From Pirellula staleyi DSM 6068 (GTDB taxonomy: Bacteria; Planctomycetota; Planctomycetia; Pirellulales; Pirellulaceae), in contig CP001848.1 of the NCBI GenBank assembly GCA_000025185.1, positions 3,030,001 through 3,062,000 on the forward strand: a stretch of DNA of 32,000 bases, in the 5' to 3' direction. The notes under the pieces were generated by a model. That model saw only the letters and a program-made list of their open reading frames with translations. It made no database searches and was not told the origin of the DNA. The position numbers were made by a program, and so were the translations under genes. The first letter of the stretch is position 1; each line of letters begins with the position of its first letter. This document shows positions 6,683-17,855 of the stretch, one piece after another.

Positions 6683-9600
6683 CTACTCGACGGCGAGGGT
6701 TTTGAAATACCACGGGGACGCACCACCGCCCGTTTGCAGCAGCTCGAGGGTGATCCAGTCGGTGCTCGCTTGGGCAGGGGAGAGATCGGCAGTGAGGTTC
6801 ACCCAGCGATCGGGAAAAGCAGCGTCGGTGATGACGGTTTCCTGCAGCACGCGATCGCCGCAGCGGAGGGTGATTTTCCCTTCCCAGCCGTTGTCGCGAG
6901 CCGCTTCGAGCCGCAGTTTCTTCCCGCCAGTGAGCTTGGCGGCGGGCATGCTCCAGAGGATCGGATTGTTTGTATCCCCTCGCAGAGAAACCACTTGCGA
7001 CTTGCCGTGTGCTTCCGCCAGAAGTCCCGTTCGGTCCCCCGCTTGGGCCTCGAGCAGCTGAAACGGGCTTGCGAGCAGCGCGGTGGCCTCGCGAAGTTCG
7101 GGCGCTAGCCGCTGCTGCCAGGCGCGGGTCGAGGGATCGAGCACGACGACCGGCAGCGCAGGTCCGCTGGGGGTCAGCTCCACCAAATCGCGCGTGGTGT
7201 CGTGCTGCGACTTGCCGAACCAGAGCCAAATGCGGTCGCCTCGCAGCTGCATCAGTCCGATGCGTGGCTCGTCGTCGTCGAGCCCTTCGAGCTTCGCGCT
7301 TTGGGTCGGAAGTCCGGTGGCGGCATCGATCCAGATCAGGCGACTGGCGCGGGGCTTTTCGTTTTCCTTCAGAGGGTAGCGGGTCGCGATCAGCAGCGAC
7401 TTAGCGCCGAGCATGACCCGGGGATGCATGTGCGGCGCATCGTAGGTCCAGACGCTCCGACCTGTCGCCGGATCAAGCGCCGTGAGACCTGTCGACTCTT
7501 CAGCGATGAGCTGTCCGGCGGCGATGCCAGTGATGCCGACGAGCGATGGCAGCACGCGCGACCAGCGGAGCCGTCCCGTTTTGCGATCGACCGCCAGGAG
7601 TTCGCGAACCCCAGCCTGAGCGATGTAGGCGGTATCACCCACCACCAATGGCGGCTGAAAACGTTGCCGCACCCAGCTGCTATCTTCCTCCGGAGGCATG
7701 GTGGTTTGCTTACGCATCCAGCGGACTTGTCCCCGAGGATCGAAGGCGACCACGATGCCGCCGAGCGACGCAATCGCTTGATCGAGATCGGCAGCGACAT
7801 CGCACTGCTGACGTGCGAGCCAAATGCTTCGCAGTCGCACAATTTCGTGCGTCGATTGAATCTGTCCACTTGCCCAGTCGACCAGTTGCCAGGTGACCAC
7901 CGCTTCGTCTTGCTCCAGAGGCGAAAGTCCCATCACGCCGAGACGACCTTGCAGCAAGATCGGATCGGAAATGAAGCGTTGTCGATCGGGGCTCGCGGTA
8001 TTCCAAAGGAGTTTGCCCGACGATTTTTCGTAGCAGCAGAGTTGCGGCGAGTCGCCGTAGTGCATGCGTATGAAAATGCGGTCGCTGGTGACGACGGGAC
8101 GAAACGGAATGCCGGTCAGTTTCTGCGCTGCTTGCATCGAGCCGGGTGGAGCTTGCGATTGCCAGAGGCGAGTGCCGTTGTTGCTGAGGTCGTAGGCGGC
8201 GAGCTGAAAACGATTGCTGACGTAAAGGATGTTGCCATCGAGCACTTGCTCGATCTGCAAATCGACCCACGGAACTTTGTTTTGATTCGTGCGGCTCCCT
8301 TGTTCTTCGTTGGGGCGCTCGCCAGCAGGGCCATCGAGTCGGGCTTGCGTTTTGAGGGTATACGACGTGGGAGCGGGGACGTCGGTGACCGGCGCAGCCA
8401 CGGCGGTGAGACCACGATCGCCCCGCGCGATCATCTCGCGAATCATCGTTTCGTAGTTGCTGGCCGACATCGAAATGTCACCAAAACGGACGTCGGCGGT
8501 GACGGGGGCTTCAGCTTCGACACCGAGCATAGCGGCGGCGAGTCGAATGCGGGGAGCCAACTCGGCAGCGAGCGCTGGATTGCGCGCGCGGGCTTGCTCG
8601 TACTCGAGTCGCGCACGCTCGAACCAGCCACTGGCCAGCGCGCGATCGCCGAGCCACTGATGCGCTTCGGCAGCGGAATCGGTTCCTGAAAATTGAACAG
8701 CAGCGAGTTCGACCAGCGGCGCGTTGCCCGACAAGGTGGCCTGCGCTAATCGAAGCTTCGCGAGGGGAGCAAACTGGGTGGCCAAGGCTTCGCGAAGCGG
8801 GGGATGATCGGCCAGCATCAGATCGATGGCTACCGGCAAACTGGCGAGCAAACTGCGGTCGCCGAAATAGGGTGCTACACCGGGAGCCGATTCGGGATCG
8901 ATCGACGTGATCATCCGCGCGGCATCGTTCCACGCTTCGCTTTCGATCACCGACTGAATCTCGGTGAGGCGCGAGTAGGTATCTTTGCTCAGCTGTTCGA
9001 TGAGGGGATGACGCCAGCCATCTTTGAGTCGCGTGAGTCCTTCGCCACTCGCATCCACGCGCGAGCGGAGGGCAATGCTCTCGGCCCAGTCGAGCAGCGG
9101 CGCACGCTCGGCGGTGTGATAAAAGCGAAGCTGCTGGCTGAGCATCAGAATGTCGGCCGGATTTCCTTCGTAGACCGCGTGGCACAGCAGCGCCCGAAAC
9201 AGATCGCTCGGGTCGAACTCTTGCTGCTGCCAGGAATTGACCGAGTACGACAAACTTGCGCGACGAATTTCGCTAAACGACTGCACTCCGGTGCGGGAGA
9301 TTTCGCGCATCGCCAGATCGATGAATCGCTGCGGAACACTGCGCCGCATCGACTGATTGTTGCGAAAGTCGGACGTCATCAAAGCGGCATCGGAAAGCGC
9401 TGCGATTTGTTTTTCGAGCGGCAGCGTGGCGAGCAGCGGATCGTCGAGCAGGCCTTCGAGTACCGGAAATGAAACCTTGCTCGTTAAGCCTTGCGCCAGC
9501 GTAGCGACGGCAAACGTACGTCGCCACGCATCGAGCGGCACTTCGCGCGGCTGACTGGCAAGTAGCGCCGCTTGCCACTGCGCATACGTCGTCAGGTCTC

Positions 9601-11428
9601 CGACGTGCGGCACTTTTGCGAGCAAGTCCGCTTGGGCTAATTGCGTTAGTCCGGTGAACTCGCGCAGTTCGATGCGCTGGATCGTGATTCCTGTTTTGGG
9701 CGTTTTTTGAGGGATTTCGAGCCCAATCGACATCACTTCGCCGGGCTGATTTTCGTGCGGCACATCGACCGTGGCCCACGACTTTCCATCGGCGCTCAGC
9801 GACCAGCGGACACTGCCGCAACCGTAGTTCAGTTTCACAAAGCAGGCGGTTTGCGTCGCGGCGAGTGGCCGTTCGGTGTAGGGATAGAAATCGGCTTCCC
9901 ATTCGGTTTCCCAGCCCCGAAGTCGCGCGACGAGTGGGCAATCGCCACGCTTGTTTTTGAGGAAGCGGAGAACTTCGTGCGACTTGCCGTCGGCGCGACC
10001 GAGAAAAACGCCGGTCCCGGGACCAATGTCGGCCAGCTGGAGCACCACTTCACCAAGCACAGGCCGAGGCAAGAGAGCGACATAGTTCAAGCGTCGTTCG
10101 GGGTTGTCGGCCGAGAGACGAATGCCTCCGCCTGCCACCGGCTGAGGCATGAACTTAGCAGCCCACTCGAGGTCTTCCTGCGAGGGTGTTTTGCTGGGGT
10201 TCGCAAACTGCCAAGTGAGTTCGGCCGGCTTCTCGATCGCAAGTGCCACCGGTGCTGAGTGGAGTGGTCGTGGGTCTCCCTCGGTCCGGACCAACTCGAT
10301 CCCATGAAAGGCTACGCGTCCATCGAAATAGACGTCGTCGGGAGCTGTTGGCAGCGGAGCGGTGATGAGCTGCACATCGCCGCGCGAGAGAATGATTTGT
10401 CCGTTTCGATAGCGGAGCTCGATCGGACCACCGTGCCGAATTTCGCTCCGTCGATTTCGCTCGTCGTCGGTCGAAGTGAGGGTGAACGATTGGCTTTTGG
10501 GACGCGGCTTATTGCCGTCGCGGGTGTGGGTGTAAGCAGCCCATTTGTAGCTTTGATCTTCGTAGTAGTAGAGCGTTACGCCCGACGATCCGCTGTAGCA
10601 GTGGATCTGCAGCTGATTGTAGTTTTCGAGCGACAGCCGCAGCGCCGAATCGTTGGTCCAGGGGGACAGCAGGCGAGCAATTCCCTCGAGCTGTGCACAC
10701 TTGCCGCGCTGCGTGTTGGTGTCGGCGATGCGGTGATTCATGCCGGGAACGGCAGCAAACCAGGGGCGCACATCGGCTGTCAGCGGCAATTTCTTCTCGG
10801 TGTCGAATTGACGAAACGCCACTTCCGACAGGGGTGGCAGCGGTCCCTGCGCATCGATCACCGCCTGCCACGGCAGGGGTGGTGGAGCGGGTTTCACCGG
10901 CTCACTCGTAGCAGCTGGTGCCGGATTGCCAGGAGCGTTTTCAGCACGCGGAGGTGTTGGGCCACTCGGCTGGCCTGAAGCTGGCTGGCTCGCTGGATCT
11001 TCTGCATCGCTTGACGATGCTGCCGCTGTTTTGTCGTCAGCCGTTTCTGGCTGGTCGGCGTCTGATTCGTTGGTCTCTTTCGCGGGATCATCAGCTGAAT
11101 CGACCGAGGCGATGCTCGGCGCGATGACGTTCCACAGAATGGCCCCCGAGAGCCCGACGATCGGAATCACCAACAGCAGCGCGATCAGCACCACGCGCGA
11201 GTTGCCTTGCGCGAGCGACGGCTGTCGCGCCAAGATTTGCTCGGGAGTGAGCTTGGTGGAGCGCGCCAAAACGACGGAGAGCTTCGTGTCGACTTCCAGT
11301 TGAGCGGCGAGTGCTTCGCGGATCGCGGGGGAAGTTTCGAGGCGAGAACGTAGGAGTTCGATCTCTTCGAGCGTCAACTCTTCAGGAGCTTTTTGCTCGA
11401 CGAGAGCGAGCAATTGCTCGTCGGTCAT
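6683..11428 (-). CDS. giant single-pass anti-sigma-factor-like protein with a PQQ/BamB-like beta-propeller ectodomain
   Basis: 1581-aa ORF whose ATG overlaps the stop of the upstream ECF sigma gene (ATGA, 11425-11428). The N-terminal ~75 aa are helical and anti-sigma-like (LTLEEIELLRSRLETSPAIREALAAQLEVD). One TM at aa ~78-103 (VVLIALLLVIPIVGLSGAILWNVIA). An acidic/Pro-rich linker spans aa ~105-188. Six repeats with the [AV]xDxxxGxxxW PQQ-like signature lie in aa ~1055-1420 (nt ~7169-8266): AAYDLSNNGTRLW, CCYEKSSGKLLW, VAFDPRGQVRW, LAVDRKTGRLRW, TALDPATGRSVW, IWIDAATGLP. Confidence 0.85.
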   Translation of the reverse strand: MTDEQLLALVEQKAPEELTLEEIELLRSRLETSPAIREALAAQLEVDTKLSVVLARSTKLTPEQILARQPSLAQGNSRVVLIALLLVIPIVGLSGAILWNVIAPSIASVDSADDPAKETNESDADQPETADDKTAAASSSDAEDPASQPASGQPSGPTPPRAENAPGNPAPAATSEPVKPAPPPLPWQAVIDAQGPLPPLSEVAFRQFDTEKKLPLTADVRPWFAAVPGMNHRIADTNTQRGKCAQLEGIARLLSPWTNDSALRLSLENYNQLQIHCYSGSSGVTLYYYEDQSYKWAAYTHTRDGNKPRPKSQSFTLTSTDDERNRRSEIRHGGPIELRYRNGQIILSRGDVQLITAPLPTAPDDVYFDGRVAFHGIELVRTEGDPRPLHSAPVALAIEKPAELTWQFANPSKTPSQEDLEWAAKFMPQPVAGGGIRLSADNPERRLNYVALLPRPVLGEVVLQLADIGPGTGVFLGRADGKSHEVLRFLKNKRGDCPLVARLRGWETEWEADFYPYTERPLAATQTACFVKLNYGCGSVRWSLSADGKSWATVDVPHENQPGEVMSIGLEIPQKTPKTGITIQRIELREFTGLTQLAQADLLAKVPHVGDLTTYAQWQAALLASQPREVPLDAWRRTFAVATLAQGLTSKVSFPVLEGLLDDPLLATLPLEKQIAALSDAALMTSDFRNNQSMRRSVPQRFIDLAMREISRTGVQSFSEIRRASLSYSVNSWQQQEFDPSDLFRALLCHAVYEGNPADILMLSQQLRFYHTAERAPLLDWAESIALRSRVDASGEGLTRLKDGWRHPLIEQLSKDTYSRLTEIQSVIESEAWNDAARMITSIDPESAPGVAPYFGDRSLLASLPVAIDLMLADHPPLREALATQFAPLAKLRLAQATLSGNAPLVELAAVQFSGTDSAAEAHQWLGDRALASGWFERARLEYEQARARNPALAAELAPRIRLAAAMLGVEAEAPVTADVRFGDISMSASNYETMIREMIARGDRGLTAVAAPVTDVPAPTSYTLKTQARLDGPAGERPNEEQGSRTNQNKVPWVDLQIEQVLDGNILYVSNRFQLAAYDLSNNGTRLWQSQAPPGSMQAAQKLTGIPFRPVVTSDRIFIRMHYGDSPQLCCYEKSSGKLLWNTASPDRQRFISDPILLQGRLGVMGLSPLEQDEAVVTWQLVDWASGQIQSTHEIVRLRSIWLARQQCDVAADLDQAIASLGGIVVAFDPRGQVRWMRKQTTMPPEEDSSWVRQRFQPPLVVGDTAYIAQAGVRELLAVDRKTGRLRWSRVLPSLVGITGIAAGQLIAEESTGLTALDPATGRSVWTYDAPHMHPRVMLGAKSLLIATRYPLKENEKPRASRLIWIDAATGLPTQSAKLEGLDDDEPRIGLMQLRGDRIWLWFGKSQHDTTRDLVELTPSGPALPVVVLDPSTRAWQQRLAPELREATALLASPFQLLEAQAGDRTGLLAEAHGKSQVVSLRGDTNNPILWSMPAAKLTGGKKLRLEAARDNGWEGKITLRCGDRVLQETVITDAAFPDRWVNLTADLSPAQASTDWITLELLQTGGGASPWYFKTLAVE

Positions 11429-12171
11429 GCGGCACCACCACGTTTCGTATCAAGACAATGCTTGAGCGCTTGCCGCGCTCGATGGACCAAAAGTTTCACA
11501 GCCCCTTCGCTCCGTTTCAGGTACTCGGCGATCTTGGCCATGCGCAGCTGTGCGCCATAGCGAAGTTCGATCGCCTGCCGAGCACTGGGGCCCAGCGAAC
11601 TGATGCAGGCGGGCAAATGCTGCATCGATTCATCGTCGTGATCAGCCACCGAGACACGGAGTTCGTCGATCTCGAGGCAGAGCTCGGTCCAGGCGACTTC
11701 TTTGCGGCGCTGGCGCTTGCGTACATGCTCGCGGAGCACGTTCCGCGCGATGCCGATCAGCCAACTTCCCACCGCCGAAGCTCGATCAAGCCGCTCGCGC
11801 CCCAGATAGCAGCGTAGGAAAACTTCCTGGCTCAAATCTTCAGCGTCGGAGTGTTCGGTGAGCCGTGCTCGCAAGAATCCGAGCACCGTTTGCTGATAGA
11901 GCTCAATCAGGACCGAGAAAGCTTTTTTGTCCCCCCGCTGTACTGCTTGCACCAGCGCGTGATGCCCCGAGACTTCGTAGGCCTCGCCGCGACGCTGCGT
12001 CGCTTCCCCCGACGCTGCCAAATCGCGCACGACCGACAGGTCGCGAGCCATCTCGAGGGCAGCGGAGGTGGGACGAGACGTTTTCACGCGATCTTCACTT
12101 CCAGGAGCGGTGGGGGCAGGGGGCTCGCAAGGCGGAGGGCGGTCGGATTTCGATGACTCATCTTGCTGCAT
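11425..12171 (-). CDS. ECF-type RNA polymerase sigma-70 family factor
   Basis: Sigma-2 region (LVQAVQRGDKKAFSVLIELYQQTVLGFLRARL...AEDLSQEVFLRCY) and sigma-4 HTH (ARQAIELRYGAQLRMAKIAEYLKRSEGAVKLLVHRARQAL). The start is uncertain. The ORF-track GTG at 12309 is unlikely because codon third positions in 12172-12309 are A/T-rich. ATG 12171 gives ~60% GC3 up to 12052. ATG 12051 (208 aa, ~79% GC3 just downstream) is the conservative alternative. Confidence 0.8.
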   Translation of the reverse strand: MQQDESSKSDRPPPCEPPAPTAPGSEDRVKTSRPTSAALEMARDLSVVRDLAASGEATQRRGEAYEVSGHHALVQAVQRGDKKAFSVLIELYQQTVLGFLRARLTEHSDAEDLSQEVFLRCYLGRERLDRASAVGSWLIGIARNVLREHVRKRQRRKEVAWTELCLEIDELRVSVADHDDESMQHLPACISSLGPSARQAIELRYGAQLRMAKIAEYLKRSEGAVKLLVHRARQALKHCLDTKRGGAA

Positions 12172-12425
12172 CGATCCATGCCAACATCGTAGTCGGTCGC
12201 TCCCACGGTTCGCAACTTTTTCTTCAGCACTTGCATGCAGGTTTGTCGGCGTCGACAAGAGGTTCGACAACGGGGGGCGATCCTCAACAACTGGAACTGC
12301 AGCAACCACTTACGATCGAGCTAGCCGAGCGGCCGAAAGGGGAGGCACGATCGACGTATCAGCAGATGGCTGCGGGGACAAATCGTGTTACGTCAATTTC
12401 CGCACAGTCGCGCGGCAAGCAACCC

Positions 12426-13307
12426 CTAACGTGTTGGTGGCGCTGGTTCTGGACGTTCTTTACAGGGATGCTGAAATGGCAATTTGCCACCCCGCCACGC
12501 TCCCTTGGCTTCGTGCTCGAGCTTGGCATACGCCTCGGCCAGTTCAATCACCGCGTCGTCGCTCCGGTCGACCTGCAGATCGAGCCAAAGTTTGAATTCG
12601 GCTTCGTCCTGCTCGCGCACCTTGTCGACACGGATGCCAGCTGCCAGACGTCCCCGATGATCACCGCCAGCACAGTCCCCTGCGAGGAGCGCGGCCATCA
12701 AACGGTCGGCGAGCGAGCCTTCGGTCGCTTCGTAAGCAGCTGCCATGCCGGCGATCACTTCGCGGCCGGTCAGCGTGTTCCCTTGGCAGCTGTAGAACTT
12801 GCCGGTCTGAGCCCCCCAGTACGAACTTTCCTTCGGCGCAGTATCGGGGTTGTGCACAGCCACTTCCCCCTTCATGTTCACGATCGCCAGTTGCCGAGCT
12901 CCCGGCTGAGGATCGCTCTCGAGCAGTTCGGCGAGCACACGCTCGGGGCGTTTTCCTTCCTTGAGCATCGCCAAGGCCGGCTCGCCCCATTTGGGAACGT
13001 GATAGTGCTGCGTGCAGAACGCGCCGATCCCCGCTTTGACATACGGAACGACGCGCCCCACGGAAGGGTACATGCTCGCGACTGCAGCCCCCACTTCGCC
13101 ATGCTCGGGATCGCAGGCGACGATTGAAAACGTAGCGACAATCTCGCGGCGCTCGCGCTGCTGTGCTAGTTCGTCGCGCGCGATGCTCGAAAGATCGTCT
13201 CCCCAGCTAGGAGCGAGCGCTGCGGGACTTAGTGAAGAGAGGCCGAGAGCCGAGCCGGTAAGAAGTGCTCGCGAGAGCAACGATCGGCGATGAATTTTGG
13301 TGTTCAT
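12426..13307 (-). CDS. Tat-exported DUF1028 family (Ntn-hydrolase-fold) protein
   Basis: 293-aa ORF. Twin-arginine signal (MNTKIHRRSLLSRALLTGSALGLSSLSPAALA). After a ~35-aa spacer comes the DUF1028 hallmark TFSIVACDPEHGEVGAAVAS, the nucleophile-proximal motif of this family. Confidence 0.85.
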   Translation of the reverse strand: MNTKIHRRSLLSRALLTGSALGLSSLSPAALAPSWGDDLSSIARDELAQQRERREIVATFSIVACDPEHGEVGAAVASMYPSVGRVVPYVKAGIGAFCTQHYHVPKWGEPALAMLKEGKRPERVLAELLESDPQPGARQLAIVNMKGEVAVHNPDTAPKESSYWGAQTGKFYSCQGNTLTGREVIAGMAAAYEATEGSLADRLMAALLAGDCAGGDHRGRLAAGIRVDKVREQDEAEFKLWLDLQVDRSDDAVIELAEAYAKLEHEAKGAWRGGKLPFQHPCKERPEPAPPTR

Positions 13308-13389: not shown

Positions 13390-14445
13390 CTACTGGCCGA
13401 CGAGCGTAATTGGAATCGGGCTGTCGAACCCATGTCCCAGCACCGAGTCGTTCGGATCGGTACCAGCAGCTACAGCACCTTGATGATTGTGGAACGGATC
13501 ATCGGGAAGCGAATCACAATCGTGGCACGAGATGAAAGCGATGTGGCCATCCTCGTAGAGCACGTTTTGACCACGTCCGCCATGATTGCTCGAGCGGCGT
13601 CCAGGCTGCGAATCGCAAGGAGCATCGCCGAGCAAAGCGTAGTTGGTGCGGCGAGCATTGGCAGGAGCAAACAGGCTGCCGTTCATCAGGTGTCCCATCG
13701 CGTAGCCAAAGCTGCCACCCATCCGCTCGCGAAGTTTTTGCAGCGACGATTTGTCGGCACGATCGATTTCATCGAGTGTCGGGATGGCAAACGAACTCAC
13801 ATCATTAGCTAGTTTCGACGAAGGACAGAGGAGCAAGCGGGGATCGCTCACCAACTCGCTAGAAACGAGCATCGGGCCATAAATGCCGGGGGACGATCGA
13901 TTTCCGGTCTGCGAAATCTGCGGGAAACGATGATCGGGATCGTGGTCGCTATATTCCTGCAGCGCGAACCCGAGTTGACGCAAATGATTTTGGCAAACGG
14001 CCAGCTCGGATTGAAAGCGGCTGTGAGCGATGGCTGGGAAGAACAGCACCAGGGCCGCCACACTCACGCTAATGCCCATCAGCACGTCGGAGAGCGAATA
14101 CCAAGTGCGCGAGGAATAGCTGGCCGGACTGATTTCCGACAGGTGAGGCTGATCCTGAAAATCGACAGCCGTCGCGAGCCTTGCCTGCGCCACCGACACC
14201 AGTGGCGAGACTTCCTCGACCGGTGTGGCCAGCACGAAATCGAGCGTGCGTGAGGCGAGGTCGGCGGGTGGTTCGTGATAGAGCGGGGCATCGCATAGCC
14301 CCACAATGTCGAGCTTGTCGCGCAAGCGCATCAGCTCTTCGGCAAGCCGTGGGTCGGCTGCCAGTTGTTGTTCGACTTGCTCAATTTCCGTGCGCTCAAG
14401 CGCTCCGAGCAAGTAGCCAAGCAAATGTTCGCGGCTGGTACTCAT
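13390..14445 (-). CDS. anti-sigma factor fused to a pilin-like DUF1559 (H-X9-DG type) extracytoplasmic domain
   Basis: I place the start at ATG 14445-14443 (MSTSREHLLGYLLGALE...), giving an ATGA overlap with the sigma gene stop at 14442-14444. The ORF-track start 14472 would overlap the sigma gene by 31 nt. Cys/His-less ZAS-like N-terminus, then one TM (VLMGISVSVAALVLFFPAIA). Next come a DUF1559-type helix (FQSELAVCQNHLRQLGFALQEYSD..RFP) and a C-terminal box NHGGRGQNVLYEDGHIAFIS. Confidence 0.85.
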   Translation of the reverse strand: MSTSREHLLGYLLGALERTEIEQVEQQLAADPRLAEELMRLRDKLDIVGLCDAPLYHEPPADLASRTLDFVLATPVEEVSPLVSVAQARLATAVDFQDQPHLSEISPASYSSRTWYSLSDVLMGISVSVAALVLFFPAIAHSRFQSELAVCQNHLRQLGFALQEYSDHDPDHRFPQISQTGNRSSPGIYGPMLVSSELVSDPRLLLCPSSKLANDVSSFAIPTLDEIDRADKSSLQKLRERMGGSFGYAMGHLMNGSLFAPANARRTNYALLGDAPCDSQPGRRSSNHGGRGQNVLYEDGHIAFISCHDCDSLPDDPFHNHQGAVAAGTDPNDSVLGHGFDSPIPITLVGQ

Positions 14446-15086
14446 GGGCTTTCGGGGTGGGAGTGATTCCACATCTCGGTGAGCTTCAGCACGGCAGCAT
14501 GCACACGGCTTTTCACGGTTCCTACGGGGATCCCCAGCACGTCGGCAGCTTCGCGATACTTCAGCTCTTGGAAATAAACCAGGTCGATCACTTGCCTGAG
14601 TCCTTCAGGTAGTTGCTCAACCGCATCACTAATCCAAGTACGTCGTTCTTCCGAATTGAGTTGGGCAGTCGGATTCGGTTCGCTGCTGACCAAGAGGTCC
14701 ATCAGCGTGCCGAGATCGTCACCACCCGTCGAACTCGTTCGGTCGAGACTCACCATCCGATGGCGTTTGCTCCTTCGCTGTGCATCAATCGCCTGGTTGG
14801 TGGCAATGGTGTAGAGCCAAGGACGAAACGAGCGATCAGCTTCGAATTGTCCGCACTTCAAGTGCACTTGCAGAAATGCAGCTTGAAAGGCGTCTTCGGC
14901 CAGTTCGGCGTCCTGCAAGTACCGCCGCAAGTAGCTGTAGAGTTCCCGTTGATAGCGGCCTACGAGTTCCGAGAAGTAATCTCGGTGACGCGTGTCGCGA
15001 TAACGGGTGAGCAGCTGCTCGTCAGTCAGTGACGACAGGTTAACACCAGTGTTCTGGGAAGCGATCTCTGGGAAGGTGGCTTTCAT
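14442..15086 (-). CDS. ECF-type RNA polymerase sigma-70 family factor
   Basis: 214-aa ORF. Sigma-2 (FSELVGRYQRELYSYLRRYL...AEDAFQAAFLQVHLK...FRPWLYTIATNQAIDAQRR) and sigma-4 (LPEGLRQVIDLVYFQELKYREAADVLGIPVGTVKSRVHAAVLKL). Confidence 0.9.
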   Translation of the reverse strand: MKATFPEIASQNTGVNLSSLTDEQLLTRYRDTRHRDYFSELVGRYQRELYSYLRRYLQDAELAEDAFQAAFLQVHLKCGQFEADRSFRPWLYTIATNQAIDAQRRSKRHRMVSLDRTSSTGGDDLGTLMDLLVSSEPNPTAQLNSEERRTWISDAVEQLPEGLRQVIDLVYFQELKYREAADVLGIPVGTVKSRVHAAVLKLTEMWNHSHPESP

Positions 15087-15278
15087 CGTTTGTTACGAAC
15101 CGCTGGGAGATTTAGTTCGCATCTTTCGTGAAGTGTTCCCTCGGGCGAGGCCGCGATACAACCAATAGCGACGTTTCGGCGAATGGCCGAATTCTAGCAA
15201 TCGAGGTCAGGAAAGTCTGCAGTCGAATCGACTGACCGACAAACCTCGATTGTTTCCCTCGCTACTGGAACGGCCGAT

Positions 15279-15333: not shown

Positions 15334-17040
15334 GTGCCTGAAAGCTCGCGCGTGCCGAAAACAGACTACCAGTGGGCCACCAAAGGCGATGTTAACGCGT
15401 TCTTTGGCTTGATGTTAGATAATGTCGCAAATTTGCTATTGACGGTAAGTCTGCTTTCAGGAGTGTTCGGTTTTCCTGAAAGAATTGCACTTCGCTACAT
15501 GATCCCGGGTACCGCTATCGGGGTACTTGTCGGCGATCTTCTCTTCTTCTGGCTGGCCTTCCGTTTGGCCCGAAAAACCGGCAGTAAGTCCATTACTGCC
15601 ATGCCTTTAGGTCTCGATACACCCAGCACCCTCGGCATGATTTTCTTTGTCCTGGGGCCCGCCTTCCTCGAGGCTCAGAAAACCCTAAGTGTTGACGAAG
15701 CTGCACTTTACACCTGGCGACTCGGGATTTGTGCCATTTTTACCAGTGGGTTGTTCAAACTTGCATGTGCCCTCGGCAGCAACTGGATTCGCCGGGTCAT
15801 CCCCCGGGCGGGGCTGCTCGGCTCCCTCACCGCCATCGCTTTGGTCCTGATTAGTTTTCTTCCGCTGCTCGAAATCCTCCACATGCCGATTGTCGGCTTT
15901 GTGTCGCTAGCAGTCGTCCTGACGACACTTGTCGCGCGGGTCGAATTGCCTTTCAAGCTCCCCGGAGCGTTCGGCTCGCTCCTGATCGGGGGCATTCTTT
16001 ACTACGCGCTGCGCTATGCCGAAGGTTCGGGAATTTTGCCCGCTCCTTTGCATCTTCCGGCCGAAGGGACCCCGATTAACCCGGCCCTGGGGCTCCTGCC
16101 GTACGAATGGATGAGCGTCTTTTCGTTCCAGTGGCTCACCGCGTTCAACGACTCGATCAACTACTTGCCGATCGTCATCCCCTTTGCGCTCGCCACGGTC
16201 GTCGGCGGGATCGACTGCGCTGAAAGTGCCGCCACGGTCGGCGACGACTACGACACCCGCGAAGTGATCGGCGTCGAAGCGCTCGCCACCATCGCAGCCG
16301 CTCTTTGCGGCGGTGTGATTCAGTCGACCCCCTACATCGGCCATCCCGCCTACAAAGCGATGGGAGGTCGCGCCGCCTATGTTTTAGCGACTGCCATTTT
16401 TGTTGGAGCTGCTGGACTCTTAGGTTTCTTTGGCTATCTCTACGTCGTGATCCCCAAAGTGACTGTCTTTCCGATCCTCATTTTCATCGGTCTCGAGATC
16501 ACCGCCCAAAGCTTCCTGGCGACTCCCAAACGGCACTACGCCGCCCTGGCCATCGCGTGTGTCCCGGCGCTAGCGCAACTCGGACTGATTTTTCTCGACA
16601 AAACCTTTGGCGACGGCCTGATGTTCGAGAACAAGATTTCCGTCGACAGCCTCAAAACCCCGGGACTCGCCGAAGAGATCACCACCCTGCGGATTCTCGC
16701 CAACGGCTTTATTCTCACTAGCCTGTTTTGGTCGAGCGGCTTAGCGATGATCATCGACCGACGGCTCGGCGTCGCGGCTCTGTTTTTCCTAGCTTCGGGG
16801 GTCTGTACCCTGTTTGGCATCGTCCATAGCCCGCAGCCCGGCAGCCCGATGTTCTTCCCCTGGGATCTCACTCCCGAATTGGCCCGCCCCGTTTTTCAGT
16901 ACGCGACGGGCTATTTCCTCGTCGCTGCTATGCTCGGCCTCTGGCAGCTGTACCTCAATTTCCAAGGGATCGAGCCGCTCGAAGGGGATGAAGATCCGCA
17001 CGCTCTCGCTCCCCCTTCGCCAACAGCCGACTTGTCGTAA
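15334..17040 (+). CDS. polytopic permease, NCS2/AzgA-like (xanthine/uracil permease superfamily) candidate
   Basis: 568-aa ORF with a GTG start and roughly 13 hydrophobic segments along its length. N-terminal pattern ATKGDVNAFFGLMLDNVANLLL...AMPLGLDTPS and overall size resemble AGZA/AzgA-type purine permeases. Family assignment is by recollection, not by search. Confidence 0.8.
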   Translation: MPESSRVPKTDYQWATKGDVNAFFGLMLDNVANLLLTVSLLSGVFGFPERIALRYMIPGTAIGVLVGDLLFFWLAFRLARKTGSKSITAMPLGLDTPSTLGMIFFVLGPAFLEAQKTLSVDEAALYTWRLGICAIFTSGLFKLACALGSNWIRRVIPRAGLLGSLTAIALVLISFLPLLEILHMPIVGFVSLAVVLTTLVARVELPFKLPGAFGSLLIGGILYYALRYAEGSGILPAPLHLPAEGTPINPALGLLPYEWMSVFSFQWLTAFNDSINYLPIVIPFALATVVGGIDCAESAATVGDDYDTREVIGVEALATIAAALCGGVIQSTPYIGHPAYKAMGGRAAYVLATAIFVGAAGLLGFFGYLYVVIPKVTVFPILIFIGLEITAQSFLATPKRHYAALAIACVPALAQLGLIFLDKTFGDGLMFENKISVDSLKTPGLAEEITTLRILANGFILTSLFWSSGLAMIIDRRLGVAALFFLASGVCTLFGIVHSPQPGSPMFFPWDLTPELARPVFQYATGYFLVAAMLGLWQLYLNFQGIEPLEGDEDPHALAPPSPTADLS

Positions 17041-17177
17041 TTGTCCGTCGCGCGATCCAAACCAGTGACACCCTGTACTGGCTCGCACGGCAAACGACCA
17101 CTCCACTTTCACGCGCCCCCTTGGTAGGTTCACTAGGCACACTCTCTCCTCACTCTCGTGCCTCGGAGTCAGCCTCG

Positions 17178-17855
17178 ATGTCGCTTGTGCGTGTACTCGA
17201 AAACGAAGTGATGGACTCGCTGGAAGAGGCCACCACCTACGACGAGATGGATCACTCGACGGTGAACACCCGTTTTGTCGATGATTTGCTCGCCGCTGGT
17301 CTCCCGGGCAACGACGTGCTCGACCTCGGGACTGGCACCGCACGGATTCCGATGGAACTTTGTCGCCGCCACGCCGATTGCCGCGTGATGGCTGTCGACG
17401 CCGCCGGGGCGATGCTCGATCAGGCCTATTACAACATCAGCGCCGCTGAACTAACGGGCCGCATTCAACTGGCCCAGGCCGACGGTCGCAAGCTCCCCTA
17501 TGCCGACGGGCTGTTCCACGCCGTCATTTGCAACACGATCGTCCACCACATCGCCGATCCGCTCCCCGTCCTCGCCGAAGCTGTTCGGGTCACCGCCCCT
17601 GGTGGCCTGCTGATGATCCGCGATCTCACCCGCCCCGACACAGAAGAACAGCTCGCCACGCTCGTCGAGCAATACGCGGGCCAGGAAGCTCCCTATGCCA
17701 AGCAGATGTTTGGGGACTCGCTCCGGGCCGCCTTCACCCTCGCCGAAATCCGCGACATGGTCGCCTCCCTCGGCTTTCCCCCCGACACCGTCACCATGAC
17801 CAGCGACCGTCACTGGACTTGGCTCGCACGGAAGGGATCAGAGACTAGAGAATGA
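17178..17855 (+). CDS. class I SAM-dependent methyltransferase
   Basis: Motif I VLDLGTGTARIPMEL, then RVMAVDAAGAML, post-I/II elements (LPYADGLFHAVICNTIVHHI) and PGGLLMIRDL. I prefer ATG 17178 (MSLVRVLENEVMDSLEEATTYDEMDH) over the ORF-track TTG 17121. Confidence 0.85.
   Translation: MSLVRVLENEVMDSLEEATTYDEMDHSTVNTRFVDDLLAAGLPGNDVLDLGTGTARIPMELCRRHADCRVMAVDAAGAMLDQAYYNISAAELTGRIQLAQADGRKLPYADGLFHAVICNTIVHHIADPLPVLAEAVRVTAPGGLLMIRDLTRPDTEEQLATLVEQYAGQEAPYAKQMFGDSLRAAFTLAEIRDMVASLGFPPDTVTMTSDRHWTWLARKGSETRE

Follow-up and report, generated by a model that had tools for sequence, protein, structure and literature searches.

A predicted anti-sigma factor with a DUF1559 pseudopilin-like module encoded next to an ECF sigma factor in Pirellula staleyi

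The regulatory pairs that come closest to the locus described here are sigmaW-RsiW of Bacillus subtilis and sigmaE-RseA of Escherichia coli, in which an extracytoplasmic function (ECF) sigma factor is controlled by the anti-sigma domain of a single-pass membrane protein; promoters of the sigmaW type have the consensus TGAAAC-N16-CGTA. Membrane sensing of another kind is known from Pseudomonas aeruginosa, where the pool of pilin in the membrane is read via contacts of the pilin alpha1-N region, including Glu5, with a transmembrane (TM) regulator; this intramembrane feedback between PilA and PilS was reportedly described by Kilmury and Burrows in 2016. The DUF1559 prepilin-like proteins, which are among the largest paralogue families of Planctomycetes, are still without an assigned function. 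Of the 68 DUF1559 paralogues that P. limnophila possesses, two are essential (PMC10632474), and Tuwongella encodes 91 proteins in which N_methyl and SBP_bac_10 domains occur together (PMC8567305). Here, we describe a two-gene locus of Pirellula staleyi DSM 6068 in which the gene of an ECF sigma factor is followed by Psta_2329, whose product joins a predicted anti-sigma domain to a DUF1559 prepilin-like module. The locus lies in a stretch of 32,000 nucleotides (CP001848.1, positions 3,030,001 to 3,062,000), which is referred to as the window and whose own numbering is used throughout.

The kind of system is an ordinary one, a pair of ECF sigma factor and class I anti-sigma factor; what is new is the non-cleavable DUF1559 pseudopilin sensor that supplies its TM helix. 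An earlier note on this DNA, made from the letters alone, knew of no description of such a fusion, and none of an anti-sigma factor with a DUF1559 pilin was found in the searched literature, with planctomycete ECF surveys and the supplements of ECF classifications lying outside the search; in the main text of the paper on ECF reclassification, pilins and DUF1559 go unmentioned. The locus provides a first regulatory context for the DUF1559 family, in a switch that is present across Pirellulales, and an experimental route to what the DUF1559 head recognises and to the process that the family serves.

Domain architecture of Psta_2329

The gene pair and the domains of the fusion protein are arranged as follows.

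15094-15118, minus strand: ECF promoter GAACTAAATCTCCCAGCGGTTCGTA, with -35 element GAAC, 17-nt spacer and -10 element CGTA
14442-15086, minus strand: gene of the ECF sigma factor ADB17000.1 (214 aa), limited to regions 2 and 4 (Pfam, NCBIfam)
13390-14445, minus strand: anti-sigma/pseudopilin fusion gene Psta_2329, 351 aa (open reading frame, GenBank record)
14221-14445, minus strand: predicted class I anti-sigma domain, residues 1-75 (NCBIfam models, helices of the AlphaFold2 model)
14101-14220, minus strand: cytoplasmic linker, residues 76-115, variable and poorly ordered (pLDDT, family alignment)
13942-14100, minus strand: pilin-type alpha1 helix, residues 116-168 (hhalign, profile matches to the PDB, AlphaFold2)
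13390-13941, minus strand: periplasmic head, residues 169-351 (hhalign, residue counts, AlphaFold2, Pfam)

The product of the open reading frame (ORF) at 13390-14445 is 100% identical to Psta_2329 (ADB16999.1, WP_012911261.1, UniProt D2R3P5), which carries the database label "hypothetical protein"; two of its homologues have been named "anti-sigma factor RsiW" by JGI, and ADB17000.1 is labelled "sigma-24, ECF subfamily" in GenBank. The ATG of Psta_2329 starts at position 14445 and overlaps the stop codon of the sigma gene as a four-nucleotide ATGA (14442-14445), as the earlier note had read it. The sigma factor is matched by Sigma70_r2 (1.2e-17) and Sigma70_r4_2 (3.9e-15) of Pfam and by TIGR02937 (sigma70-ECF, 5e-33), and its nearest solved structure is SigW of B. 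subtilis (5wuq_A, 5e-22), with a further resemblance to the structure of sigmaE (1or7_A, 2.7e-19). Both the restriction to regions 2 and 4 and the GAAC/CGT(A) promoter are those of sigmaW-like ECF (group 4) sigma factors.

Residues 1-75 of Psta_2329 are assigned by profile matches to a class I anti-sigma domain, and to the zinc-free form because the H-x3-C-x2-C ligands are absent. The N terminus reads MSTSREHLLGYLLGALERTEIEQVEQQLAADPRLAEEL and lacks this zinc motif; residues 30-48 (AADPRLAEELMRLRDKLDI) contain neither Cys nor His at the zinc-ligand positions, which places the domain outside the ZAS subclass and agrees with the ZAS-like but Cys- and His-less pattern noticed earlier. In NCBIfam, residues 4-88 score against NF052375 ("antisigma", E 3.5e-7) and PRK13920 ("putative anti-sigmaE protein", E 8e-8), and both models recur in 32 of 32 aligned homologues (best 9.8e-16 and 8e-13), so that the anti-sigma assignment of the earlier note stands for the family, at a best E value of about 1e-15. 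Pfam zf-HC2 matches five of the 32 homologues weakly (best 3.7e-4). In the AlphaFold2 (AF2) model of Psta_2329 (mean pLDDT 85.3), helices span residues 5-13, 18-30, 32-48, and 63-73, the fourth of which coincides with the best-conserved stretch of the family (PPxGLAxRTCxFV). Among PDB structures, Foldseek ranks RsiW (5wuq_C; E 1.4, with a TM score of 0.62 on the target) and RslA (3hug_P) highest for the model; with E>1, neither is significant, and both support the predicted N-terminal domain without proving it. Residues 1-100 alone, used as a query for homologues, returned a single match and were thus uninformative. The linker that follows is the length-variable, gap-rich part of the family alignment, and its mean pLDDT is 42-68 per 10-residue block (residues 81-120), falling below 50 at residues 97-112.

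The single TM segment that had been proposed is present: VLMGISVSVAALVLFFPAIA (residues 121-140, nt 14026-14085) lies inside a hydrophobic stretch of residues 116-142 and is the only part of Psta_2329 with a 19-residue Kyte-Doolittle mean above 1.6. It is followed by HSRFQSELAVCQNHLRQLGFALQEYSD. The residue just before the span is most commonly Arg among the 263 family members for which positions were counted, and the positive-inside rule together with the topology of pilins predicts an N-in orientation, with a cytoplasmic anti-sigma domain and an extracytoplasmic head. When the family profile is compared with the PDB, it matches geopilin (7tgg, E 0.007) and PilE1 (8pfb_G, E 0.0077), both over the alpha1 helix, and the alignment sets the family's "f-r-L-v-D-L-L-vaaavl...ffPal" on the pilins' "F-T-L-I-E-L-L-IVVAII...AIPq". 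In this register, Y116 of Psta_2329 is residue +1, D120 (nt 14086-14088) is +5, and P137 is +22, whereas the position of Gly-1 is occupied by W115. AF2 predicts one continuous helix from residue 118 to 168, which carries the motif CQNHLRQLGFALQEYSD; C151 (nt 13993-13995) stands at the start of CQNHLRQLGFALQEY, which aligns to the helix motif of canonical DUF1559 proteins.

The canonical proteins used for comparison are 120 prepilins retrieved with a consensus probe; PF07963 is recorded together with PF07596 for 117 of them, and PF07596 without PF07963 for the other three. The residues at the diagnostic pilin positions compare as follows (fused family, n=263; canonical DUF1559, n=115 scored).

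Position -1: fused family Arg 136, Ser 30, Gly 19 (Trp in Psta_2329); canonical Gly or Ala 113
Position +1: fused family W/F/M/Y/L; canonical Phe 113
Position +5: fused family Asp 243, Asn 13, Glu 3; canonical Glu 113
Position +22: fused family Pro 260; canonical Pro 113

The distance from residue +5 to the Cys of the helix motif is 31 residues in both groups. The earlier note was right that the prepilin leader is lost, and Gly-1 has disappeared with it, but its claim that the anti-sigma domain has also replaced Glu5 is wrong, because D120 stands at the equivalent position and is Asp in 243 of 263 relatives; the rest of the N-terminal pilin signature is kept. The protein thus combines features of both kinds. 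It lacks the leader of a prepilin, with Trp instead of Gly or Ala at -1 and Asp at +5, and neither TIGR02532 (NCBIfam) nor PF07963 N_methyl (Pfam) is among the reported matches of Psta_2329 or its homologues. It has the build of a pilin, with a long alpha1 helix that is hydrophobic in its N-terminal half and contains Pro22, followed by a beta-sheet head. Known prepilin peptidases require a small residue at -1. Because the anti-sigma domain replaces Gly-1 and the short leader, the pseudopilin is predicted not to be processable and should not be cleavable by prepilin peptidase. Judged from the alignment, purifying selection acts strongly on the pilin contact residues, although identity elsewhere in these sequences is only 35-50%, and the conservation of Asp at +5, a hydrophobic or aromatic residue at +1, and Pro22 indicates that contacts of the kind made by pilin TM helices are still selected for and form part of the working of the module.

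In 43 of the 115 canonical prepilins, Ala takes the place of the classical Gly before Phe+1, which suggests that the prepilin peptidase of planctomycetes is less specific at -1.

Homology to DUF1559 extends beyond the membrane span. In a comparison of profiles, the C-terminal part of the fused family (alignment A2) and 30 canonical prepilins that all have both domains (alignment A4) were matched by hhalign over 62 columns, comprising helix and motif, with a probability of 98.2% (E 5.4e-14), and RTWYSLSDVLMG...FFPAIAHSRFQSELAVCQNHLRQLGFALQEYSD was set on the canonical R-GFTLVELLVVIAII... The heads alone, with the helix removed, still align weakly but colinearly (P 3.1e-4): LLCPSS falls on FxCPSD, SSNHGGRGQNVLYEDGHIAFIS on FSSxHPG-GANFLFADGSVRFIS, and the C-terminal boxes on each other with a one-residue gap. 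This box, NHGGRGQNVLYEDGH, has the form H288-X10-D299-G300 (nt 13546-13587) and lies on a beta-hairpin, so that the coexistence of pilin helix and H-X10-DG box postulated earlier is real. In both AF2 models, that of Psta_2329 and that of a canonical DUF1559 protein, there is a long helix (about 51 residues), and the His...DG box is carried by a terminal beta-hairpin that precedes a short helix; the hairpin of the fusion protein (E292-297/E302-306, helix 307-312) has the same topology as that of the canonical protein (E258-263/E268-272, helix 277-284).

The head also contains C207 (nt 13825-13827) in the sequence "LLCPSS" and a family-specific tail, DDPFHNxxGxVAAGxDxxDxVLG. C151, C207, and H288 are conserved in 262, 263, and 261 of the 263 relatives, respectively, and the first two correspond to an invariant Cys pair of canonical DUF1559 proteins (C42 and C129). 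Further polar residues of the head, N287, H288, R291, Q293, N294, D299, D315, N320, and D333, are invariant over sequences of 35-50% identity. By homology, the span and the head both go back to a DUF1559 prepilin, whose head has been trimmed and has diverged.

Family distribution, promoter and gene neighbourhood

The architecture is not peculiar to P. staleyi. There are 415 full-length relatives of 322-383 aa (90% clusters) in which it is conserved as a whole, and 510 fusion loci in the species-representative genomes of GTDB. Locus comparisons were made with the best 80 of these 510 loci and three others that had been fetched earlier; the best 80 fall into Pirellulaceae, Pirellulales, Thermoguttaceae, Blastopirellula, and Anatilimnocola. 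An orthologous sigma gene (50-72% identity) directly precedes the fusion gene on the same strand in 83 of 83 loci, and the sigma factor is better conserved than its anti-sigma partner (35-48% identity). In 26 related loci, the end of the sigma gene and the start of the fusion gene overlap (interval -4 or -8 nt), and in most others the interval does not exceed 25 nt, which points to genes that are often translationally coupled and co-transcribed. The survey for leaderless DUF1559 proteins 3' of ECF sigma genes that the earlier note had called for thus returned a widespread arrangement.

An exhaustive HMMER search with the pilin-like half of the protein returned 86,823 representatives (50% identity) at E<=1e-3, 2,190 at E<=1e-10, and 755 at E<=1e-30. 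In most of the best 150 matches, about 80-186 additional N-terminal residues precede the part that the profile matches.

Some database entries are shorter. Eight relatives of 246-258 aa (P0128, P0149, P0166, P0174, P0186, P0223, P0225, and P0262) start just before the helix and have no anti-sigma domain; P0149 reads N-G-W-T-W-A-D, with Gly at -1. The short relatives (224-260 aa) were considered as stand-alone pilins and rejected, as they have neither a leader nor a G-F-x-x-x-E motif; they are probably truncated gene calls.

The promoter was found by aligning, and then scanning, the regions upstream of the sigma gene in related loci. Exactly one GAAC-N16/17-CGTA element is present in each of the 81 loci with enough upstream DNA to be scored (81/81; 43 with N16, 38 with N17), and its end mostly lies 4-11 nt before the sigma start codon; in the window, it ends 7 nt before the ATG. 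The extended consensus across loci is yGAACyyTy...GrTnCGTAgaaa. In 628 kb of related loci, the pattern has 114 matches on both strands, of which about 82 are the sigma promoter and the remainder occur at roughly the rate of chance; the single match in the 32-kb window, where about one is expected by chance, is the sigma promoter. A recurrent extra match on the antisense strand within the permease coding sequence was dismissed as a product of conserved codons. Because the conserved promoter is of the GAAC/CGTA sigmaW type, the operon of sigma factor and fusion protein is almost certainly autoregulated, as far as can be told from its sequence, and because the promoter motif is sharply defined, the regulon should be both predictable and measurable. 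Since the -10 element abuts the sigma ATG, the mRNA of the pair is probably leaderless or nearly so.

The 4-11 nt between the end of the promoter and the sigma ATG could not accommodate a Shine-Dalgarno sequence.

The genes that flank the pair in the window are the following.

15334-17040, plus strand: permease-like membrane protein, 568 aa, ADB17001.1, divergent (GenBank name only)
17121-17855, plus strand: class I methyltransferase, syntenic with the permease-like gene
12426-13307, minus strand: DUF1028 protein (match 1.5e-61), directly downstream of Psta_2329

In about 48 of the 83 loci, an orthologue of the permease-like protein (mostly 55-73% identity) is encoded upstream of the sigma gene in divergent orientation, often followed by the methyltransferase (e.g., L002 824-3246, L004 748-3145). 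ADB17001.1 has no match in Pfam or NCBIfam, its GenBank name is "MFS transporter xanthine/uracil permease", and the window scan revealed no ECF-type promoter directed at the permease-like or methyltransferase genes. The permease-like protein is a possible neighbour of the sigma/anti-sigma system and not a demonstrated part of it. The DUF1028 gene, whose product bears a twin-arginine-like signal (HRRSLLSRALLTGSALGL), is probably not part of the system, because it is absent from all 83 related loci.

On one metagenomic contig (L003, 3347-3975), the orthologous sigma gene is split into two ORFs of 95 aa (region 2) and 73 aa (region 4); either it is a pseudogene, or the split is due to a frameshift or an error in sequencing. 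The metagenome-assembled genome SMAG_U6108 contains one sigma/fusion pair on each of two contigs (L024 and L031; DASZUP010000295.1 and DASZUP010000037.1); the pair may be present as two paralogues in some genomes, unless the bin is a mixture.

A second pair of ECF type is located downstream in the window (6683-12309, minus strand). Its 294-aa sigma factor (11425-12309) has regions 2 and 4 and an N-terminal extension of about 115 aa, and its stop codon overlaps the start of the gene of a 1581-aa protein by ATGA (11425-11428). This protein, which no anti-sigma model matched, has a helical N terminus, one TM segment (VVLIALLLVIPIVGLSGAILWNVIAP), and a PQQ_2/BamB-like beta-propeller (1.4e-30), and may be a further anti-sigma factor whose ectodomain is of giant size.

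Proposed mechanism and rival explanations

The locus probably encodes a two-gene, autoregulated ECF switch of the sigmaW/RsiW type, whose anti-sigma factor is a chimera of an anti-sigma domain, a flexible linker, and an unprocessable DUF1559 pseudopilin. The pilin alpha1-N helix would serve as the single membrane anchor and the trimmed DUF1559 head as the input domain that faces the periplasm. In the resting state, the sigma factor would be held at the membrane by the anti-sigma domain. The pilin-like module would then receive a cue, from the periplasm or from within the membrane, that leads to the inactivation of the anti-sigma factor, most probably by regulated proteolysis, as in the case of RsiW and RseA, and the released sigma factor would transcribe its own operon and a regulon. 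The head may bind a periplasmic ligand or partner, which would fit its many invariant polar residues and conserved tail, and the alpha1 helix may sense pilins or an assembly machine within the membrane, which would fit the conserved Asp5 and Pro22. For the sigma field, this would be a new type of sensor, as the span itself is pilin-derived and retains pilin interaction residues, which suggests intramembrane signalling rather than purely periplasmic ligand binding.

Several points weigh against this reading. PF07596 matches Psta_2329 with 18.2 bits (E 0.0028) and over residues 151-167 only, below the gathering threshold of 23.3 bits, and TIGR04294 does not match it at all; among the 32 homologues, PF07596 matches 23 at E<0.01 (best 2.1e-8), several of them above the threshold (e.g., P0052 with 35.0 and P0036 with 34.7 bits), and TIGR04294 matches nine weakly (best 0.0063). 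The earlier note had asked for a comparison of the C-terminal half with DUF1559 and H-X9-DG models; the single protein has the sub-threshold PF07596 match, and the family profile reaches the 98.2% of hhalign against canonical DUF1559 over helix and motif. When the heads alone are compared, however, the probability falls to 39.5%, and the alignment shows that the canonical central block (NYxG...GNGxF..NSxxRFxDITDGTSNT..VGER) is absent from the head of the fused family, where a shorter helical segment (IPTLxEiDxA..L...Q.MGGxYGYnmGy) takes its place. Foldseek found no significant match in the PDB for the head of either the fused or the canonical protein, and matched the canonical model only to pilin helices (E>=0.24); the relationship between the two folds consequently rests on sequence. 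Generic pilin helices are part of the count of 86,823 representatives, which alone is no proof of membership in DUF1559. In addition, no gene of a type II secretion system (T2SS), type IV pilus (T4P), prepilin peptidase, or site-1 or site-2 protease is present in the window or on the three gene-annotated contigs (L001-L003). Finally, we infer the binding of the sigma factor by residues 1-75 from sequence, and the signal, the release mechanism, and the regulon by analogy.

The rival explanations differ in the role that they assign to the pilin-like part. It is conceivable, although on balance doubtful, that Psta_2329 acts as a decoy pilin, whose uncleavable alpha1 helix (with Asp5 and Pro22) would dock on mature DUF1559 pseudopilins, on a T2SS/T4P-like assembly platform, or on the prepilin peptidase, so that the ECF sigma factor reports the state of the pilin pool or the machine. 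The free N-terminal amine of mature DUF1559 pilins would pair with Asp5, and depletion or accumulation of pilins, or engagement of a T2SS/T4P-like machine, would alter the conformation or stability of the anti-sigma factor and free the sigma factor. The conservation pattern is consistent with such a role, as the residues of pilin-pilin and pilin-machine contacts are kept (Asp +5 in 243 and Pro22 in 260 of 263 relatives, an aromatic or hydrophobic residue at +1), while the rest of the span varies; the family profile falls on the pilin alpha1-N region in perfect register, and canonical DUF1559 prepilins are massively paralogous in such genomes, as exemplified by the 68 of P. limnophila (PMC10632474). 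By contrast, no T2SS, T4P, or DUF1559 gene is linked in the window or on the contigs L001-L003, and the bulky cytoplasmic N-terminal domain precludes the normal packing of a filament. The acidic residue is systematically Asp and not Glu, and the geometry of the contact therefore need not be that of pilins. If true, this would be the first sigma/anti-sigma circuit gated by pilin-pilin recognition within the membrane and the first functional entry into the huge planctomycete expansion of DUF1559. The same lack of linked pilus or secretion genes would suit the opposite case, namely, that the pilin-derived part is only an anchor and a handle for degradation, by which generic envelope damage is transmitted through site-1 and site-2 proteolysis as for RsiW, and that its DUF1559 origin is accidental. 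The sigmaW-like character of the sigma factor and its promoter and the trimmed, divergent head speak for this rather improbable explanation, but the head is strongly conserved, and its invariant polar residues and family-specific tail argue for specific binding or a fold-dependent function; moreover, a passive anchor leaves the conserved intramembrane Asp unexplained.

Two further possibilities concern the integrity of the gene product. Prepilin peptidase might cut before residue 116 as if the anti-sigma domain were a giant leader, setting this domain free in the cytoplasm, with or without the sigma factor, and giving rise to a mature DUF1559 pilin in the membrane, so that processing itself would be the activating step. 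Residues +1, +5, and +22 are indeed in the register of a prepilin, and Gly is found at -1 in 19 of 263 relatives; however, this position is Arg in 136 and Ser in 30 of them and Trp in Psta_2329, as opposed to Gly or Ala in 113 of 115 canonical proteins, and TIGR02532 and PF07963 are both missing among the reported matches, which makes cleavage very unlikely. It is least credible, to a degree that borders on the negligible, that the locus is an artefact and really consists of two genes, a small anti-sigma factor and a DUF1559 prepilin with an internal start, or that the resemblance to pilins is that of any hydrophobic helix. Some short entries in the databases (224-260 aa) do start close to the helix, but the ORF is uninterrupted in 415 full-length proteins and 510 loci from independent assemblies, and the homology does not end with the hydrophobic span but takes in the motif CxNxLxQxG, the two Cys residues of the pair, and the His-DG box. 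When the six frames of the window and of L001-L003 were scanned with a regex for the prepilin start G-F-T-L-x-E, none was found, which argues against a hidden internal prepilin gene and a canonical DUF1559 neighbour, and no prepilin cleavage motif exists in any frame of these sequences. As the fusion is widespread and always located 3' of an ECF sigma gene (83/83), the two-gene and artefact alternatives fail, and the concern of the earlier note that the fusion might be confined to a single genome is dispelled. An ECF switch with an unprocessable DUF1559 pseudopilin as its sensor thus remains the reading that we favour.

Comparison with known systems

The sigmaW-RsiW pair of B. subtilis (PDB 5wuq) is the closest counterpart on the side of transcription. 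SigW is the closest solved sigma factor, the promoter has the same GAAC-N16/17-CGTA pattern, and RsiW is the best, albeit not significant, structural match of the N-terminal domain; in both cases, the gene of a single-pass protein directly follows that of the sigma factor, and the N-in orientation and the autoregulation of the operon that are known for RsiW are predicted here as well. Unlike RsiW, Psta_2329 lacks the H-x3-C-x2-C zinc site, and its span and extracytoplasmic domain are those of a pilin of the DUF1559 type, not those of the RsiW ectodomain. The operon of Psta_2329 also appears to be leaderless, and proteolysis of the PrsW/RasP type is an assumption in its case. With sigmaE-RseA of E. 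coli, the system shares an ECF sigma factor whose partner, a single-pass protein of the inner membrane, has a class I anti-sigma domain without zinc; sequestration of the sigma factor is predicted also here. In RseA, however, the periplasmic domain interacts with RseB and is cleaved by DegS upon a signal from the C termini of outer-membrane proteins, whereas nothing comparable to RseB or DegS is evident at the Psta_2329 locus, and the promoter type differs from that of sigmaE.

The pilin-like part resembles the canonical DUF1559/SBP_bac_10 "PulG-like" prepilins (PF07963 and PF07596; TIGR04294) in the aromatic residue at +1, the acidic residue at +5, Pro22, the Cys 31 residues after +5, the helix motif, the second Cys in CPS[SD], and the His...DG box on a terminal hairpin that is followed by a helix. 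The fused family differs from them by the lack of a leader and of Gly or Ala at -1, by Asp in place of Glu at +5, and by a cytoplasmic anti-sigma extension of 115 aa. Its head is shorter, with 56 residues from Cys to Cys compared with 86 in the canonical proteins and 81 from the second Cys to the His compared with about 138 (an approximate regex estimate); it has H-X10-DG in place of the canonical X9, a longer, family-specific C-terminal tail, and no DITDGTSNT..GER block. The alpha1 helix that profiles recognise and the succession of a long helix and a beta-sheet head are shared also with GspG/PulG, PilA/PilE, and geopilin. Unlike the pseudopilins of T2SS and type IV pilins, however, Psta_2329 is predicted to be unable to present a free, N-methylated residue 1, and in contrast to solved pilins, its head has no significant structural match and no assembly genes are located nearby.

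For the reading of Psta_2329 as a pilin mimic, PilA-PilS of P. aeruginosa is the closest analogue, although the analogy is a functional one. PilS is a histidine kinase, and the pilin that it reads is a separate, cleaved protein, whereas here the pilin-like helix lies within the regulator itself.

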